Positions 19,440-53,684 of a stretch of DNA of 64,000 nucleotides are shown in pieces. Position numbers and translations under genes: made by a program. Origin of the DNA: Mustelus asterias (taxonomy: Eukaryota); contig NW_027590745.1 of NCBI RefSeq assembly GCF_964213995.1, positions 1 through 64,000 on the forward strand. The letters run 5' to 3'. Position 1 is the stretch's first letter. Every line of letters starts with the position of its first letter. Below the pieces are notes generated by a model. The model saw nothing but the letters and a program-made list of their open reading frames with translations. It had not been told where the DNA came from and searched no databases.

Positions 19440-19566
19440 GGCCGGAATTTTAGTGCCCTGCCCACCATGGGAATTGGAGCGGGCGAGGGGTGGACAATGG
19501 GAAGGTCCGTTGACCTCGGGCGGGATTTTACGGTTTCGGGATGAGCAAGGCCTTAAAACCCCGCCC
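19440..19566. mobile_element. Harbinger-type MITE
   Basis: Imperfect TIRs ggccggaattttag / ttaaaaccccgccc; 3-bp TSD CAT. Confidence 0.8.
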
Positions 19567-21056: not shown

Positions 21057-21208
21057 CCTGTATCTCTGACTGTATATTGAGCACTGGTACATTGAGACCA
21101 GTTTCCCTGACTCTGTAGTGAACTCTGGTACAGCGAGACCAGTATTTCTAACTGTATAATGAACACAGGTACAGTGAGACCTGTATCTCTGCCTGTATAA
21201 TGAACAAT
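21057..21208. repeat. 41-bp satellite units, left part of an array split by the LTR element
   Basis: acctgtatctctgactgtataatgaacactggtacagtgag, ~4 degenerate copies. Confidence 0.85.
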
Positions 21209-21296
21209 GTGTGATGTTGCCGGGGCCTGGGGATTGCGCTAGGTGAAATGGAGTTCTCTCACTCAGTTCAATAACTCACCGTTGTCCAGATACAAT

Positions 21297-21414
21297 GGGC
21301 AGGATTTTATGGCCTCGCTCATCCCAAAACTGTAAAATCCCGCTTGAGGTCAATGGACCATTCCGTTGTCTGCCCCTCGCCCACTCCGATTCCCAGGGCG
21401 GTAAAATTCCGACC
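21297..21414. mobile_element. Harbinger-type MITE inserted in the 3' LTR
   Basis: TIRs gggcaggatttta / gtaaaattccgacc; TSD AAT; absent from the other LTR. Confidence 0.85.
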
Positions 21415-21809
21415 AATATAAATGTTTATTCACCTGTCTTCAGGCACTCATCGAAACAGAAATAAAGGAATTAAATACCTCGCTCATCCTTGAGCCCAAT
21501 TTTGCATACAGTTCTGCACACAGTAAATCCTTCCTTCTCCAAGGTAGCTTCCTCTCACTCACTAGTGGGCTACCCACCTAGCGGGATTCAGTACTATGCT
21601 TATATAGTCTGATAAGACTGCACAATTGGTCCTCATCAGACTGCCATCTGACTCCCTATGGCCATCTCAGTAGGATAAGGTCTTGTCCAGATATTATGAG
21701 GGAAAAACCGACCTTCCAACGCACAGCCCCTGGTGACACCACATAACCCCTGGCCTAAACATATCTTGGGGAGCAATGTCTACCTGCAGACTGAATATAC
21801 AGAAACAAT

Positions 21810-22101
21810 TTCTGCTTGGAGGTTCATATCTGTTTCTTCCAGATTCCTGTGACCACAACCACTGCGCTGGGAAATAGAACCACTAGCCTTTTGAGGAGCT
21901 CTAGCATGTTCAGTGATTATTCATTTCCCACAAAGTTCTTTACCATTCAACTCATAAACAGTATCGTCTGCATCTTGAGGATCATCAAATTCAACAAAGC
22001 CATATCCGTTCTTTATGTCCACCTCCAAGATTTTTCCGTGGTCCTTGAAGACGCGCTCCATGGGCCTGGTAACTGAGCCTTCTGGAGTAAACCCGCGACA
22101 T
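21810..22101 (-). pseudogene. srsf4: Processed SRSF4-like (SRSF4/SRSF6) fragment, RRM1 plus linker, inside the LTR element
   Basis: MSRVYSRRLSYQA / ERVFKDHGKILEVDIKNGYGFVEFDDPQDADDTVYELNGKELCGK*IITEHARAP...SGCGHR / SGRNRYEPPSR, compared with SRSF4 MPRVYIGRLSYQARERDVERFFKGYGKILEVDLKNGYGFVEFDD...GYGYRRSGRDKYGPPTR; no introns, two frameshifts, one stop. Confidence 0.88.
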
Positions 22102-22755
22102 CTCCTTTCCCTCTCTTTTCCACACACCCACTGGTGGGAGGCTTCTGATGCAGCGCTCTCGGGCTGCTACCATAGCGCCTAGAACAAAGGACAATCCTGA
22201 CCAATCAATACTTGATGTGGCAAGTGCTTTACAACACCAACCTTGACCTGGTAGGCCCCTGGGGTGTTTGAAAGTAGAGCTGCCCTATGGAATATGCCTG
22301 GGCATCCCCAGCCACACAAGTGATGGCCAAGGCATATGCTCCTTCCTCCAAGAACATGTCTTTGGACACCATGCTCGGATCCACCTAAGTTACAATGCTC
22401 CCCGACTCCCAGATGGCTTCCACAGTTCTCTCTTCCACGTGACGGGTTTTTGGGGGTGCAGGGTTGATGGTGCGGCAGGCTGCAATGAGGTTACAGTCCA
22501 TATACTTGGGGTCATTCTTGTAGGGACATTGACCAGCCAGGTGTCTCACTTCCCTACAATAGCATGATCTCCCCTCTTTTTCCTCCGTTGTGTCTGCCAT
22601 CGCAGTTGCGGTGAAGGTGTTATCCATATTGGATTCTATTCTGAGAGCCATGGCTTCCTAGTCACCTCTTAGGCAACGGCTCCAGATGTTGTCATCGGGG
22701 AACAGCGCCCTTCAGTTTGGGCCCTACTTCAGACTTCCTGTCTTCAGTGGTACTG

Positions 22756-22940
22756 ATGTGGAAATGCCGGTGTTGGACTGGGTGGGCTACAGTAAGAAGC
22801 CTCACATCACCAGGTTAAAGTCCAACAGGTTTATTTGGAATCACAACCCAGATGGACCAGGTGTATGAGATCAACCATCTGAATCGTGATTCCAAATAAA
22901 CCTGTTGGACCTTAACCTGGTGTTGTGAGACTTCTTACTG
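22756..22940. mobile_element. Penelope-derived mini insertion with inverted termini around a 41-bp core
   Basis: Arms 22756-22844 and 22886-22940 are inverted; flanking duplication ttcag/ttcat...tactg (11/13). Confidence 0.88.
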
Positions 22941-23054
22941 TTCATTAGTACTGCTGTTGCTCAACGGATTACACTGCTTGATCCACCTATTGGGGATTCC
23001 CTTGTCTCACCAATCTCCTTACATCCAGTGGTAAAGTCCTGATAAGCGATCCAT

Positions 23055-23323
23055 CGTAGAATCCCTACAGTGCAGAAGAGGCCATTCGGCCCATTGAGTC
23101 TTCACTGACTCTGACAGAGTATCTTACCTCTCACCTACCCTATTCCTGTAACCCCATACATTTCCCACGGCTAATCCACCTAACCTGCACATCTTTGGAC
23201 TGTGGGAGGAAACCCACTCAGACATGGGGAGAATGTGCAAACTGCACACAGACAGTGACCCAAGGCTAGAATCAAACTCAGGTCCCTGGTGCTGTGAGGC
23301 AGCAGTGCTAACCATGTGCCGCC
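23055..23323 (-). mobile_element. HE1-type V-SINE (CR1 tail) inside the LTR element
   Basis: Head ggttagcactgctgcctcacagc; tail ctcttctgcactgtagggattcta. Confidence 0.88.
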
Positions 23324-24345
23324 AGCACAACTCTTCCCACCACAAGTCCTAGGCTGAGCTCCTCTGGTTATAGCCACCTCTTGGCCAGGTGCATGAGATC
23401 AACCGTCTGGGCCTGGGGTGCTCTGTCTTCTTTGTATACCCAGGCATGGAAGCGCTGAACCTGTGTAACCATCATCACTCCTAACCACGGTACAGTTTCT
23501 TTCTTCAGTGCCTCGTAATCCTCTGCTGCTTTCTCTTCCAGGTCATAATAAGCCTCTGGGTTTCACCAGGCACATGCGGGGCAATAATTCCATCCCGTTG
23601 TTCTCATGGCCAGGCGTTCCTGTTCACTGTCCGCTGAAATATCCTCAGAAAAGTTCCTCTGGAACTGCTGGGAGAGATTAAACCATCCAACTGGCAAGCT
23701 CAGCACTTAACCTATGGCGTTCAACCTGTAGTTGCTGATGACTCTTCCTTTACTCTTCCAGCAACAAACAGTTAGTCTCCACTTGAGTCCGAATGGCTTC
23801 GTACTGGGCCAGTACAGCCTGGACCGGTTGTTGTTGTATTAGGGCTTCCATGATTGAACTGAGTTCTCTGTGATTACCCATGACCTAACCCCACATTCTC
23901 CAGCAAATATGATGTCTCCAGGGGCTGGGGATTGCACTAGGTGGGGTGGAGTTTCTCAGTTCAATAACTCGCTGTTGTCCAGGTACAATATAAAGGTGAA
24001 TGTTTATTTACAGAACTTCAGACACTCACCAAAAGAGAAAAAAAGAGAATTAAATAACTAGTTCTTCCTTGCGCCTAACTTTACACACAGTTCTACACAC
24101 AGTACATCCTTCCATCTCCAAGGCAGCTTCCGCTCATTCACACGTGGGCTTCCCACCCAGCGAGACTCAGTACTCTGCTTATATAGCTTGGACCCTCGTT
24201 GTATCAATTATTAATCAGTCTGCATGTGACTTGCTGTGGCCATCTTGGTAGGAAAAGCTCTTGTCCAGATACTGGAGGATATCATGAGGGAAAATCCGAC
24301 CCTCCAACACACAGCCCCTGGTGACATCACAAACCTCCCAGTTAA

Positions 24346-27300
24346 ACCTGTATCTCTGACTGTATAATGAATTATAGTCCAGTCAGACCAATTTCACTGA
24401 CTGTATAATGAACATTGGGACAGCGAGACCTGTATCACTGACTGTATAATGAACACTGGTACAATGCGACCAGCATCTCTGACTCTTTAAGGAACACTGG
24501 ATCAATGAGACCTGGATCTCTGACTGTATAATGAACACTGGCACAGTGAGACCTGCATTTATGACTGTATAATGAACACTGGAACAGTGAGACATGTATC
24601 TCTGACTGTATAATGAACACTGGCACAGTGAGACATGTATCTCTGACTGTATAATGAACACTGGCACAGTGAGACCTGCATTTATGACTGTATAATGAAC
24701 ACAGGAACAGTGAGACCTGTATTTCTGAATGTATAATGAACACAGGAAAATGAGACCTGTATCTCTAACTGTATAATGAACACTGAAACAGTGAGACCTG
24801 TGTCTCTGACTGTATAATGCAGATTAGTGCAGTCAGACTGTTAGCACTGACTGTATAATGAACACAGGAAGTGTGAGACCTGTATCTCTGACTGTATAAT
24901 GAACATGGGTACAGTGAGACAGATATCTCTGACTGTATAATGAACACTGGGGCAATGAGACTGGGGTCTCTGACTGTATAATGAACACTGGCACAGTAAG
25001 ACCTGTATCTCTGACTGTATAATGAACACTGTTACAGTGAGACCTGTATCCCTGACTGTATAATGAACACTGGCACAGTAAGACCTGTATCTCTGACTGT
25101 ATGATGAACACTCGAACAGTGAGACCTGTATCGCTGACTGTATAATGAACATTGGTACAATGCGATCTTATCTCTGACTCTATAATGAACACTGGGACAA
25201 TGAGACTTGGATCTCTGACTGTACAATGAACACTGACACAGTGAGACCTGGATCTCTGACTGTATAATGAACATTGGCCCAGTGAGACCTGTATTTATGA
25301 CTGTATAATGAATGCAGGGACAGTGAGACCCGTATCTCTGAATGTATAATGAACACAAGGAAATGAAACCTATATCTCTGACTGTATAATGAACACTGGA
25401 ACAGTGAGACCTGTATCTCTGACTGTAAAGTGAACACTGGTACAGTGAGGCCTGTATCTCTGACTGTATGATGAACACTGGTACAGTGAGACCTGTATCT
25501 CTGACTGTATAATGAACACTGGGAGAGTGAGGCCTGTATCTCTGACTATGATGAACACTGGTACAGTGAATGCTGTATCTTTGACTGTATAATGCAGACT
25601 AGTACAGTCAGACTGCTATCTCTGACTATATAATGAACATTGGTACAGTGAAAGCTATACATCTGACTGTATAATGAACACTGGGAGAATGAGACCTGTA
25701 TCTCTGACTGTATAATGAACACTGGTCCAGTGAATGCTGTATCTCTGACTGTATAATGCAGATGAGTACAGTCAGACTGTTATCATTGACTGTATAATGA
25801 ACACTGGGACAATGAGACCTGTAGCTCTGGCTGTATAATGAACACTGGGACAATGAGACTTTGATCTCTGACTGTATGATGAACACTGGTACAGTGAGAC
25901 CTGTATCTCTGACTGTATAATGAACACTGGAACATCAAGTCCACTGTCTCTGACTGTATAATGAACATTGGTACAGTGAGAGCTGTATCTCTGACTGTAT
26001 AATGCAGACTAGTACAGTCAGATGTTATCACTGACTGTATAATGAACAGAGAGAGAGTGGGACCAGTATCTCTGACTATAATGAACAATGGTACAGTGAG
26101 AGCTGTATCTCTGACTGTATAATGCAGACTAGTACAGTCAGACTGTTATTACTGACTGTATAATGAACACTGGGAGGGTGTGACCTGTATCTCTGACTGT
26201 ATGATGAACACTGGATCAGTGAGACCAGTATCTCTGACTGTATGATGAACACTGGTACAGTGACACCGATATTTCTGACTGTATAATGAAATCTGGGACA
26301 ATGAGACCTGTATCTCTCTCTGACTGTATAATGAACACTGGCACAGTGAGACCTGGATCTCTGACTGTATGATGAACACTGGAACAGTGAGACCTGTATC
26401 CCTGACTGTATAAAGAACACTGGTACAGTGAAAGCTGTATCTCTGACTGTATAATGCAGACTAGTACAGTCAGACCGTTATCACTGACTGTATAATGAAC
26501 ACTGGGAGAGTGAGACCTGTATCTCTGACTGTAAAATGAACATTGGCACAGTGAGACCTGTATTTATGACTGTATAATGAATGCAGGGGCAGTGAGACCT
26601 GTATCTGTGAATGTATAATGAACACAGGGAAATGAAACCTGTATCTCTGACTGTATAATGAACACTGGAACAGTGAGAGCAATATCTCTGACTGTATGAT
26701 GAATACTGGGATAGTGAGACCTGTATTTCTGACTGTAAAATGAACACTGGGAGGGTGAGATCTGTATCTCTGACTGTATAATGAACACTGGTACAGTGAG
26801 ACCTGTATCCCTGGCTGTATAATGAACAGTGGAATATTGACACCTGTATCTCTGGCTGTGTAATGAACACTGGTACAGTGAGAGCTGTATCTCTGACTGT
26901 ATAATGAGCACAAGGAAATGAAACCTGTATCTCTGACTGTATAATGAACACTGGCACAGTGAGAGCAATATCTCTGTCTGTATGATGAATACTGGGATAG
27001 TGAGACCTGTATTTCTGAGTGCATGATGAACACTGGTACAGTGAAAGCTATATCTCTGACTGTATAATGAACACTGGGAGAGTGAGAGCTGTATCTCTGA
27101 CTGTATAATGTACAGTGGAATATTGACACCTGTATCTCTGTATGTATAATGAACACTAGCACAGTGAGAGCTGTATCTCTGACTGTATAATGCAGACTAG
27201 TACAGTTAAACGGTTATCAATGACTGTATAATAAACAGTGGGAGAGTGAGACCAGTATCTCTGACTGTATAATGAACGCTGGTAGAGTTACACTGATATT

Positions 27301-27532
27301 TCTGACTGTATAATTACCTCTGGGACAATGAGACCTCTATCTCTGACTGCATAATGAACACTGAAACAGTGTGACCTGTATCTCTGACTGTATAATGAAC
27401 AGTGGTACAGTGAGACCTGTATCTCTGACTGTATAATGAATTGTGGTACAGTGAGACCTGTATCTCTGACTGTATAATGAATTGTGGTACAGTGAGACCT
27501 GTATCTCTGACTGTATAATGAACACTGGTACA
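24346..27532. repeat. 41-bp satellite array (~75-80 diverged units)
   Basis: Unit acctgtatctctgactgtataatgaacactggtacagtgag with recurring variants. Confidence 0.97.
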
Positions 27533-27684
27533 AAGACTTGTCTCAGTCTCTCTTCTATCACTATAATATTTCACAGGATACAAAGTGGTTTGGTCACACA
27601 CACAGGATCGTGAAGGGGGATTTTCTTTTGTCCTTGTATATCATTGATTCTAAACGGCAGCAATCACAACCTATTATATCACAA

Positions 27685-34908: not shown

Positions 34909-35717
34909 NNNNNNNNNNNNNNNNNNNNNNNNNNNNNNNNNNNNNNNNNNNNNNNNNNNNNNNNNNNNNNNNNNNNNNNNNNNNNNNNNNNNNNNNNNNN
35001 NNNNNNNNNNNNNNNNNNNNNNNNNNNNNNNNNNNNNNNNNNNNNNNNNNNNNNNNNNNNNNNNNNNNNNNNNNNNNNNNNNNNNNNNNNNNNNNNNNNN
35101 NNNNNNNNNNNNNNNNNNNNNNNNNNNNNNNNNNNNNNNNNNNNNNNNNNNNNNNNNNNNNNNNNNNNNNNNNNNNNNNNNNNNNNNNNNNNNNNNNNNN
35201 NNNNNNNNNNNNNNNNNNNNNNNNNNNNNNNNNNNNNNNNNNNNNNNNNNNNNNNNNNNNNNNNNNNNNNNNNNNNNNNNNNNNNNNNNNNNNNNNNNNN
35301 NNNNNNNNNNNNNNNNNNNNNNNNNNNNNNNNNNNNNNNNNNNNNNNNNNNNNNNNNNNNNNNNNNNNNNNNNNNNNNNNNNNNNNNNNNNNNNNNNNNN
35401 NNNNNNNNNNNNNNNNNNNNNNNNNNNNNNNNNNNNNNNNNNNNNNNNNNNNNNNNNNNNNNNNNNNNNNNNNNNNNNNNNNNNNNNNNNNNNNNNNNNN
35501 NNNNNNNNNNNNNNNNNNNNNNNNNNNNNNNNNNNNNNNNNNNNNNNNNNNNNNNNNNNNNNNNNNNNNNNNNNNNNNNNNNNNNNNNNNNNNNNNNNNN
35601 NNNNNNNNNNNNNNNNNNNNNNNNNNNNNNNNNNNNNNNNNNNNNNNNNNNNNNNNNNNNNNNNNNNNNNNNNNNNNNNNNNNNNNNNNNNNNNNNNNNN
35701 NNNNNNNNNNNNNNNNN
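34909..35717. other. Assembly gap (809 N)
   Basis: Run of N, followed by a CA microsatellite at 35718-35850. Confidence 0.99.
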
Positions 35718-49197: not shown

Positions 49198-50825
49198 GTG
49201 ACGCAGTTCAGCAGGTGCTGTCTCCACAGCAGAGATAGCTTTGGTTTGATTTTCAGAATTTGGACTCTCAACTTGTAAAGGTGCATCTGTGCTTATTATT
49301 TATTTAGTCCTCGCAGGAATATTACTTGACCCTTCCTCAGGTTGACTTGCTTCTATACTTTTTTCATTCACAACAATATTACTGGCAGGTGTAACCGGAG
49401 CAGACTACCCCCATTGGTTCTCCATGTGATTCCTTTCTTCTCAAGTGATGTAAATGCTTTTGCAGAATTTTATCTTGAATTTGCCCCTCATATACCTACC
49501 CCTTTCTGGCCACAACAACGCCTGGGACCCAACTCGGACCAGTCACAAATATTTGATATATATTAGATCACCGACCTCGAATGCCCTCTCAATCCTAGTT
49601 GAATTGTGATTCTTCTTTTGAACACTTTGCTTTGCCTCCACCATCCCTGCCAAATTGGGAAACACCAGGTCCAACCTGGTCCTCATATGCCTGCCCATCA
49701 GCGACTTGGCAGGAGTTACTCCAGTGGTCATGTATGGTGTCGTCCTGTCGTTGATGAGAAAACGTGCTCATTTTGTCTGCAGGGATGCTGACGGTTGCTT
49801 TTTCATGGCTGCCTTAAAGGTCTGTGATGTCCTCTCAGTGAGTTCATTCGATGAGTGGTGGAAAGGTCGATACAGAGATGCTTGATGCCATTTGATGACA
49901 TGAAATGTTGGAACTCCTTGCTGGTAAATACTATTTCACTGTCTGAAACCAACATCTCTGAGCTTTGCCTTAACCTTTTCACTATTGCAAAATAAGTCGT
50001 GCACTTCATTTCATAAATATCCAGCCGTTTTGAGTGTGTGTCCACGATAAGTAGGAACATTGTACCCATAAATGGGCCTATAAAATCCACGTGAAGTCTC
50101 ACCCATGGCCGGCCTGGCCTTCCCAAGGGTGCAGTGGGGCTGCGGATGGTAACTTCTGTTGTACCTGACAATGGTCGCACCGCTAAATCATGCTCCCTGT
50201 GTTTGCATCTATCCCAGGCCACCAAACGTAGCTGTGAGCCAACATTTTCATCTTGGACATACCTGGGTGGGCGCTGTGTAATTCCTCAACTAACAACTTT
50301 CTGCCAGGTATGGAGACCACCACCCTCAATTCCCGCAGAATGATGCCGTCTTCACCGCTCAGTGCATCCTTCCTTCTTTGAAAGGGTTTTAGCCGTTCAG
50401 ACATTCTATCATAATGCCAGCCATCAAGAATCATGTGCTTTAATTCGGATAATATTGGATCTCTTTCTCCATTGAGAAAATTAAAGGCTAAGACATTTTT
50501 TTGTGGCACTGCTGGGGATGGCATATTGGGAGACAGCTCAAGGTGTCTGCATTTGATCTATGTGCCCCTAGCCAACAATAAACATTGTATCCTTACAGAC
50601 GCTATCTGAGGGATTGCTTTATATTCTCTGAACAGTCCGAGTAACATTTTATGATCAGTGATTATGGTAAAATGCCGCCCACAAATATATTGGTGGAATT
50701 TCTTGAAGATGGTGGCCAAACCCTTTTTCTCGATCAGTGAGTATGCCTTCTCTGCTTCAGTTAGAGTCCTTGAAGCGTAGTGAATGGGCTTTCTGACTCG
50801 TCATTCATTTCATGTGATACAACAT

Positions 50826-51150
50826 GGGGCAGCACGATGGCATAGTGGTTAGCACTGCTACCTCACAGCGCCGAGGACCTGGGTTCGATTCCTGGCTTGG
50901 GTCACTGTCTGTGTGGAGTTTGCATGTTCTCCCCATGTCTGCGTGGGTTTCCTCTGGGTGCTCCGGTTTCCTCTCACAGTCCAAACATGTGCGGGTTAGG
51001 TGGATTGGCCAAGTTAAATTGCCACTTAGTATCAGGGGGACGAGTAGGGTAAATATGTGGGGTTACGGGACTAGGGCCTGGGTGGGATTGTGGTCGGTGC
51101 AGACTCAATGGCCTGAATGGCCTCCTTCTGCACTGTAGGGATTCTATGAA
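50826..51150 (+). mobile_element. HE1-type V-SINE (CR1 tail)
   Basis: Full head, V body, tail ctgtagggattctatga. Confidence 0.9.
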
Positions 51151-53684
51151 CATAAGGAGATGCATCACAAGTGAGTCTGATTCCTTTAGAAGGATCAAAG
51201 TGGATTAAAAGGTAGGATGGTTGCAGGGTTTACTTCACTTGTCTGAAGGCTTCTTTTTACTGTGTCTTCTAGTATCATCTTTGGTTTTTTTTTAATAACG
51301 CATGTAGAGGTGCCAGCATCATAGACAAGTATGGAATGAATCTCCCATAATCATTTACTATTCCAAGGAAAGACTTTCACTTGTATGCGGTGCTTCTTTA
51401 ATGGCCCTAACTTCATCTTCTATCGGATGCAATCCTTATGTATCCACTCTAAAACCCAAATAAATCACCTCATTTGACTGAAAAGTACACCCCTCTCTCT
51501 TTAGTCTTACTCCAGCTTTGCATATGTTAGACCCCAATCAACTTTGCATACAATTCCTCTATTTTAGGTATACAGCACCTGGTCAGTCTCGGCTGCCCGG
51601 TTTATTGTTACTTTGTAGTCTTCGTATATTTGTACGATCCTATCTGGTTTGATGACCGGCACAATGGGAGCTGCCCACTCTGCAAATTACATGGGCTTTA
51701 TGATGCCCAAATCTTCTAATTGTTTAAGTTTGGTCTCCACCTTCTCATGCATCAAATAAGGCATGGGCTTGGAGGGCTGAAGGGCCTGTTCCTGTGCTGT
51801 AATTTTCTTTGTTCTTTGTTAAGTCTGGCTCTATAGAATTTTGATGTAGCTTCTGGATCCACATGAACTTTGGCTTTCAAGCCTCAGATTTTGCCCAATT
51901 CATCTTGAATGCCCAATGGTATCTTCTGAGGACTTCATGTAAGCCCCCTTCATTCATTTTAAAAATTTCTAGCCAATTTAGTTACCTGAAGCCAATCTTG
52001 ACCCATCAAGCTTAGTCCTTGGCCCAGAACTACAAGTAATAGCTGTTGGGTAGATTGCCGTTTGTAACTTAGAGGTTGTTGTTGTTTCCAAGATCCGTAT
52101 AGCCTCACCCGTGTACATAGCCAGTTTGACTGCAGTATTTTTTAATCTCAGGGGTTAGACCCCTCTCAGTAGGTATCGATAAACTTGCTCTCCTACTACT
52201 GTGGTGGAGGCTCCTATCCACCTCCATTTTGAATGGACGACCATTGACCATCAGTATTATTGAGATAGGGGCTACCTTGCCCACTTTAATATTATTCAAC
52301 TTATGTACATTTGGTCCCCCTTTACAATTATTCTTCATGCTGTTCACTGGAGGTGAAATCTTGACCCTGCTAGCACCCTGCTGGACTCTGCAATTGCTTC
52401 TTACATTCCCCATTCTGCCACAGGTATAACACAGCTTCCTTGAACTTTCATTTCTTCTGGGGGTGATTTCCCCCACACCGATAGCACTCTTCCCAAATCT
52501 TGGTTTGTTGACCGAATCTCTTATACCTCTGCACTTACGCTCTGCATTTCTTTGCTTGTTAAACCCTGTGGGCATCCTTGGCGCCGCTGCCACTAGCAAC
52601 TTCCCTCCAAACTTGATGGATCTTGCATGCCTTGAAGCTCTATAGCATCCTTTTACACACTTTCCATGGCAAGGGCCATTTCTAGCGCCTTCTTTAGGGG
52701 TATTTCTGCTTCTGCCAACAGTTTTTTCCCGAATGGCAGTATTATTCACCCCACACACTAGACGGTCTCTCAACATATCATTAAGGGCAGACCCAAATTC
52801 ACAATGTCCAGCTGTTTGTCTCAATCTCGCCATGAAAGCTGCAGTCACTTCCTCAGGAGCTCTTGCTGTTGAGTTGAACTTATATCTTTGTATGATTACC
52901 AAGAACTTTGGATGATAATGCCCTTTTACTATTTCCACCAGCTGTTTGAAGGTTTGAGAGTCAGCACATCTGGAGAAGTCAAGTTCCTCATTAAATTGTA
53001 GGTTTGGGAACTGCAAGTTGTTAGAAGTATTACCCTCTTCTCCACAATCCTCTATTTCATTTGCTTTTCAAAAATATTGCTAGCTTTTGATGTATTGAAC
53101 CCAATTTTCTGAATTAGGATCAAAGGGTTGTAATTTTCAGAATAGAGGCATTGTTGTAACTTCCCGACTCTTGAATGGACCTGGCTTTAATGACTCTGCT
53201 CTGTCTATGTGGCAATTTGAAAGTTCTCTGTTGACCCTTATCACCAATGTGACATCAAAGAGTTGGTGACTCCCAAGTTTAGTAACTAAACAAACTATTT
53301 ATCATAATGAATCAACTACGTACAGAGTGCAAGAAATGTGCCACTGACTATTTGGACTCCAGTCTCAGACTGACTGAGAAAGCCCGTGCTCAGCCCTGGG
53401 ATTCGCACACTCCGGGCGCGATTGGTTGATTGGGTCACATGACCCTCCAAAACCTTGCACCCCCCCCCCCCCCCCCCCCCCGCCCCCCCGCCACTGCTGC
53501 TGATCCCTCTCCCCTCCATCCTCATTTCCCTCTTCACTCACCTGGGCCTGGGGCCCTCCTCGATCCGACACCTCAGGTGGGTGTAGTATAGTCATCGCCT
53601 CCCGGTGACATTGCTGAGTGCAGAAGAGCTTTCGGCCGTTGATTGACTGGCAGTTTTTGGTGGACATGACTTCCAACCCCCCCA

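Follow-up and report, generated by a model that had tools for sequence, protein, structure and literature searches.

Defective transducing retroviruses are gag-onc fusions in which spliced host sequence lies in frame behind gag, pol is missing and spread depends on a helper. The shark element described here differs from them in that it lacks env, shows no sign of selection on its cargo and is itself a Ty3/gypsy carrier of the Gmr1 type, the type of element that was the source of the vertebrate SCAN domain.

LTR-mediated retrocopies with more than two template switches and subsequent re-amplification have been described, with examples from fish (Tan et al., 2016, PMC5131818). In the pseudo-LTR retrotransposons of that account, as in our case, a partial spliced mRNA takes the place of the internal open reading frames (ORFs) between the LTRs, there is no poly(A) or target site duplication (TSD), the 3′-end is truncated, the cargo lies on the same strand as the element, and more than two switches are followed by re-amplification with common junctions. 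Microsimilarity at the switch points is described there as well (Tan et al., 2016, PMC5131818); the words in common in our case, 3 nt long at junction 1, 4 nt at junction 2 and 6 nt (against a diverged relative) at junction 3, may be of this kind. Compared with the cases in that account, the carrier here is of the Gmr1 type, an extra switch inside one mRNA takes out an entire domain, the element's frame is preserved at all junctions and the copies are old (K2P 0.19–0.25 between the paired LTRs). Maize Bs1, as treated in the same paper (PMC5131818), likewise has captured exonic pieces between LTRs and occurs in one to five copies with common switch points, but it joins three genes and has a reported protein, whereas here one gene was captured and none of the copies is intact. 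Gmr1-like Ty3/gypsy elements (bioRxiv 10.1101/2025.03.03.638093; PMC11117352) are described as having a SCAN gag, a protease, an integrase and RT-RNase H in a single ORF, with LTRs of ~340–520 bp, and are the type that our element resembles; unlike them, the lineage studied here lacks integrase and RT, and their order is visible only in cargo-free relatives. The hallmarks of a LINE-made processed pseudogene, namely a 3′-end with poly(A) and a flanking TSD, are absent, and the cargo copies do not show the open frame and the dN/dS below 1 that mark a functional retrogene. Captures of this type, in which LTR-mediated retroposition is followed by re-amplification, are already known (Tan et al., 2016, PMC5131818), but this case itself is new: our literature search found no report of an SRSF4 LTR capture or of this shark case, and the supplements of PMC5131818 may list similar fish cases. 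New features are a two-piece cargo in which an internal jump has deleted a domain, the preservation of frame at three junctions, and an LTR variant linked to the cargo.

The window, by which we mean the whole stretch of 64,000 nt of Mustelus asterias DNA that was analysed, contains at 24331–21210 on the minus strand a Gmr1-type (SCAN-gag) LTR element in which intronless SRSF4 sequence replaces integrase and RT (Table 1). We consider it likely that this decayed, pol-less element acquired SRSF4 in a single capture by template switching, and that it was then copied again by the enzymes of intact relatives.

Table 1. Parts of the SRSF4-carrying element and later insertions in it (window positions).
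Feature	Position	Strand	Basis or remark
5′ LTR, short variant (type A, ~424 bp)	23908..24331	-	LTR comparison
PBS fitting 3′-end of tRNA-Ala	23890..23905	-	pattern match to tRNA genes
Decayed gag: SCAN and zinc knuckle (22564-22526), broken by two later insertions	22526..23851	-	ATG 23851
Later SINE insertion within gag	23060..23325	-	repeat families D5, D6, D8-D10
Later hairpin (MITE-like) high-copy insertion within gag	22789..22941		repeat I3
Decayed protease and linker remnant behind it (most of linker lost in this copy)	22128..22430	-	motif and weak tblastn
Junction 1 and end of SRSF4 5′ UTR	22102..22127	-	comparison with parent
Spliced SRSF4 from exon 1 through exon 2 into the start of exon 3 (RRM1 and linker, codons 1-99)	21816..22101	-	exon junctions 22006/22005, 21863/21862
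SRSF4 exon 5, 17 nt, via 294-nt in-frame skip (junction 2); junction 3 at end	21799..21815	-	comparison with parent
Element-derived tail: last RNase H codons	21757..21798	-	comparison with cargo-free relative
Degenerate polypurine tract (PPT)	21744..21756	-	sequence; C22 and C25 copies keep PPT better
3′ LTR, type A, with later ~125-bp insertion at ~21420-21297	21210..21743	-	LTR comparison

The initial annotation had read the order 5′ LTR, PBS, SCAN/gag, zinc knuckle, protease, SRSF4-like fragment, PPT and 3′ LTR on the minus strand, which the mapped parts bear out. It had also reported integrase and RT to be absent, and tblastn with a polyprotein indeed gave no match to either within 21–24.5 kb of the window. 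Residues ~430–1370 of the Gmr1-order polyprotein P0155 are absent between the protease linker upstream of the cargo and the RNase H end downstream of it; the sequences on the two sides of the cargo belong to one LTR element but are not contiguous in it, which makes this a replacement and not an insertion. The SCAN domain of gag reaches 26.3 bits in Pfam (E=6e-6; cut-off 27) in the window copy and 36.9 bits (cut-off 27) in the C22 copy. The zinc knuckle and the protease (~22430–22180) were identified from motifs by eye and from weak tblastn matches to P0155; neither had a Pfam match in six frames of the window or three frames of C10, and RNase H had none in the frame of C4:45.28M. The RRM_1 domain is encoded at 22101–21880 (Pfam, E=4e-10), with the SRSF4 ATG at 22101. 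The two LTRs of the window element are 84% identical (K2P 0.19). A 41-bp satellite lies on both sides (21060–21209 and 24340–27600), and the element was therefore inserted into a satellite array; the flanks match at 2 of 4 positions, without a clear TSD. A pattern derived from the PBS had 461 matches versus 0 for a control pattern. The one cluster of matches that was inspected contained 8 tRNA-Ala among its 10 tRNA genes, and six scattered matches gave one Ala call, one Thr call and four without a tRNA call. A repeat-rich cluster of tandem tRNA-Ala (AGC, CGC, TGC) and tRNA-Met genes was noted at G000:C7:39.93-39.99M (L166).

The parent gene, which lies on C21, is split into six coding exons by GT-AG introns; its product is 498 aa long. 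Its exon 4 is 96–97% identical to most of the top SRSF4-named proteins versus 84–89% to SRSF6-named ones, and these named homologs identify the parent of the cargo as SRSF4. The fragment was claimed to read through introns lying after KNG and after RRM1, and the parent does have both, its introns 1 and 2, which the fragment crosses without a break. The captured sequence is 21% of the SRSF4 CDS. As the initial annotation had stated, the cargo has neither a poly(A) (the longest A run within 60 nt is 2) nor a TSD at its two ends (the longest word in common is 5 nt). A search with the fragment of the animal's own genome (3.7 Gb, all copy counts being lower bounds) gave ten matches: the window, three near-full intronless copies (C25:24.18M, C22:14.68M and C14:95.73M), two partial copies (C4:69.85M and C4:68.49M), two parent exons, one exon-1-only duplicate and one paralog exon. 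Searches of the same genome with parent exons 2 and 1 (8 and 6 matches) gave no additional copy. The exon-1 duplicate (L009, G000:C21:71264049-71264222, minus strand) includes 5′ UTR, the splice donor and some of the intron start; it and the parent are 94 kb apart and on opposite strands, with no other exon or LTR within the 110 kb examined. Having exon 1 only, with a splice donor and without an LTR, it was rejected as the parent, and L010 and L094, which are paralog exons with splice sites, were rejected as cargo copies.

Comparison with the parent and with cargo-free relatives places three junctions. The SRSF4 identity of the fragment stood, but its proposed limits, 22101–21810, did not: host sequence runs from ~22127 to 21799, of which 21815–21799 comes from exon 5. 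The initial annotation also had ~55 bp of unassigned sequence before the PPT; this is present, and an unknown filler can be rejected as it consists of the exon-5 piece and the last RNase H codons. A scrap of pol therefore persists, and the claim that SRSF4 stands in place of pol, right in that integrase and RT are gone, has to be qualified with respect to the whole of pol by this scrap and by the existence of pol-deleted relatives. At junction 1, host sequence begins in the SRSF4 5′ UTR, and the cargo-free relatives C10, C25:21.5M, C2, C68, C5 and C70 match the protease linker up to the point where the cargo copies switch. The microhomology there is just 3 nt, measured against today's parent UTR, which is a GT/GA microsatellite. 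The junction lies 6 nt before the cargo-free relatives' own deletion point, which looks like a hotspot of RT jumping. At junction 2, after codon 99, the sequence jumps 294 nt (98 codons) from exon 3 into exon 5 at a common CCAA, so that the cargo consists of two mRNA pieces and RRM2 is dropped. The 17 nt that follow have the same exon-5 offset in all four copies, with 13–16 of the 17 matching, and shuffled sequences were placed equally well in 0, 1, 0 and 6 of 1000 cases for the four copies. At junction 3 the cargo breaks off at codons for Ser-Arg in the RS region and the RNase H tail begins; in the cargo-free C4:45.28M this tail directly follows the RNase H end motif, and a 6-nt word is in common at the junction, as measured against this diverged relative. 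Junction 1 is identical at all six loci, and junctions 2 and 3 are identical at the four that retain that part. In the C22 copy (L003:1872-1981), some of the tail ahead of the PPT has given way to 110 nt that repeat junction 1 in inverted orientation, with 100% identity over 76 nt.

We suggest that an SRSF4 mRNA was co-packaged in a particle of the element and that RT would have jumped three times at short common words: from the RNase H tail to exon 5, from exon 5 to exon 3, and from the 5′ UTR to the protease linker. The product would have retained the LTRs, PBS, PPT, gag and protease, which would have let it pass through more than one cycle of transcription, packaging and integration in trans. 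Capture by template switching rather than by LINE retroposition had been proposed from the start, and the parent introns together with the lack of poly(A) and TSD support it as the likely route. The microhomology to be expected at the switch points was found at two junctions (4 and 6 nt), with only 3 nt at the 5′ junction. Counting against this explanation are the 3-nt junction 1, the failure to find a helper, the unclear TSD of the window copy, a star-shaped protease tree, and the C14 and C25 copies, which lack the 5′ half and whose insertion by integrase we presume. As a vertebrate LTR-mediated gene capture this one is well resolved, all three switch points being mapped, and it shows which RNA entered the germline particles of an old Gmr1 lineage.

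A further property of the junctions is their reading frame. The distance from linker to ATG is divisible by 3 at all five loci with a surviving linker (45, 30, 45, 45 and 45 nt), the tail is read in the frame of RNase H and the skip is 294 nt, so all three junctions preserve the frame of the element. In the window copy most of the linker is gone and the frame is broken at this place, where the copies of four other organisms are 51–68 letters longer; they also have 11 extra letters at 22060. A single frame runs from protease to RRM in C22 and from linker to tail in C25. Comparable short-word jumps are in frame in fractions of 0.38–0.47 (4-mers) and 0.34, which gives a chance of ~0.05 (about 1 in 20) for three in-frame junctions in a pattern spotted after the fact, and this is more order than a pure passenger needs. 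These frames, and the single gag-pol ORF that Gmr elements are described as having (PMC11117352), would fit a capture that was beneficial, in which RRM1 and the linker in a Gag-protease-RRM1 polyprotein helped to package or export the element RNA, as would the finding of cargo at 4/4 short-LTR loci with internal sequence versus 0/6 long-LTR loci. Were the in-frame fusion selected, a host RNA-binding domain would have been recruited into a retrotransposon polyprotein. We nevertheless regard a benefit as improbable, and the evidence leans against it. The copies are few, and frame is also kept in cargo-free relatives that have lost the integrase core (C25:21.5M, C5) or RT (C4:45.28M) with the frame unchanged at the join; keeping frame therefore seems to be a habit of the lineage and not specific to the cargo. 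The in-frame junctions may then reflect chance or a mild filtering for translatable, stable RNA.

The changes in the RRM also speak against a benefit. Private changes amount to 106 nonsynonymous and 26 synonymous on 241.7 and 73.3 sites, with no departure from neutrality (p=0.36), and stops, frameshifts or insertions occur at all six cargo loci. Nine non-CpG differences are common to at least three of the four main copies, versus 0.8 expected by parallel change. Five of these include the window copy, four being synonymous and one nonsynonymous at a variable residue, and they fit a change in the parent. The other four set C22, C25 and C14 together apart from the window copy, which implies successive source elements; one is synonymous, two alter His69, a residue that 14 of the 15 homologs examined retain, and the last falls at codon 90, where C25 and C14 have a stop. 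Since this internal branch, with three nonsynonymous changes to one synonymous, carries the His69 and codon 90 changes, a source element with a damaged RRM appears to have gone on transposing, although the numbers are small. Pairs of changes shared by subsets of copies were rejected as evidence of ancestry (~14 are expected from parallel change). None of the present-day copies supports a working RRM-only protein; a functional role of the RRM is unlikely, and it is most likely a passenger. We are equally doubtful of the fuller scenario, in which a pol-less vertebrate lineage would have gained a Gag-protease-RRM1 polyprotein by three in-frame jumps, used RRM1 and the linker to bind or export its own RNA, and founded a short-LTR subfamily with dozens of insertions.

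Alternatively, a LINE could have copied the SRSF4 mRNA into an existing element, after which RRM2, the 3′-end, poly(A), the TSD and the adjacent pol were lost through deletions, and the trimmed element spread. Deletions at short repeats are common in the family, as the loss of the integrase core and RT in relatives illustrates, and could erase the hallmarks of a LINE; junction 1 has just 3 nt of microhomology, and LINE-like sequence (class read by eye) is plentiful around the loci. On the other hand, exon 4, exon 6, the 3′ UTR and poly(A) are absent from every cargo copy, junction 1 lies at most 6 nt from the family deletion point, and an insertion and two deletions would be required before any surviving copy arose. 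We therefore hold the LINE route to be decidedly unlikely, and favor template switching during reverse transcription of the element.

The possibility that the fragment had been amplified, raised in the initial annotation, is confirmed by the presence of the chimera at six loci, which represent five independent insertions, with RRM2 skipped. At 97% identity, and with their flanks and a later insertion in the cargo in common, the two C4 copies form a segmental duplicate. The cargo copies are 82–87% identical to the parent. That all copies stem from DNA-level duplication of one chimeric locus and not from retrotransposition would agree with the C4 pair but is very improbable, as the remaining copies are 74–81% alike and on different contigs, searches with element parts found no flank in common, the C22 copy has 4-bp flanks matching at 3 of 4 positions, and for C713 versus C22 the flanks differ at the LTR ends, which refutes duplication for that pair. 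We point out that such dispersed copies are open to mis-annotation as extra SRSF4 genes.

The cargo-type LTR is ~424 bp and the other type ~650 bp, and in a tree of 21 rows the cargo copies and 10 solo LTRs split from 5 cargo-free LTRs at 100/99. Of 54 loci typed, 41 are without internal sequence (21 short, 6 long and 14 untyped) and 13 are element loci. Cargo is found at all four element loci with a short LTR, counting the window, whose row has no cargo flag because that locus stops short, and at none of the six with a long LTR, counting one that ends before junction 1; two of the three untyped element loci also have cargo. The short variant is thus peculiar to cargo-bearing copies among loci with internal sequence, and occurs in at least 21 solo LTRs as well, but the solo LTRs were found with short-LTR queries (40/132 and 40/133 candidates scored), which biases the ratio of short to long. 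The short solo LTRs may descend from the chimera, solo LTRs keeping no record of their former content. Among 17 solo LTRs with both ends found, 13 have 4-bp flanks that match at 3–4 of 4 places. The protease-linker tree is a star, in which a clade of cargo copies is neither shown nor rejected (p-AU 0.42).

A SCAN-bearing gag, an LTR pair, a tRNA PBS, a PPT and a short TSD are present in the family, and the cargo copies themselves have no RT. The integrase-before-RT order is seen in the cargo-free C25:21.5M, C5 and C70 but not in cargo copies, and C70, the most complete relative, has no integrase core. Deletions had also removed the integrase core and RT from cargo-free relatives, so what the cargo replaced may have been a remnant of pol rather than the whole of it. 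Genome and protein searches found no intact autonomous helper with these LTRs: the tail DNA search returned just two cargo loci, the RNase H-end protein search in the right frame returned only itself, and the search for homologs of an RT/RNase H remnant returned 0 of 186 candidates. Atlas clusters for RT/RNase H at 0.76–0.78 offer a lead only. The cargo-free relatives are a pol-eroding, non-autonomous Gmr1 lineage in their own right. Among them, L082:6880-7200, L013, L074, L012 and L019 make up a series of pol deletions, and in several the reading frame continues through the join. Two database proteins, P0152 and P0181, have SCAN, the integrase C-terminus and RT without a match to the integrase core, and may be similar deletion derivatives or gene-model artefacts.

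Contigs from four other organisms (4/4 runs) contain the window copy at ~92–97% identity across the cargo into the 3′ LTR, and those of two of the four extend into the satellite flank. The insertion therefore predates the split of these organisms and is a possible phylogenetic marker. The later insertion in the 3′ LTR (21297–21420), a short repeat of high copy number, is also present in the copies of other organisms, and has an inverted relative 1.7 kb away in the window at 19462–19566 (I2). The sole N run of the window covers 809 bases (34909–35717), and a separate decayed Ty3/gypsy element, with the usual order of RT, RNase H and integrase and a SINE inserted in it, lies at 49550–52200.
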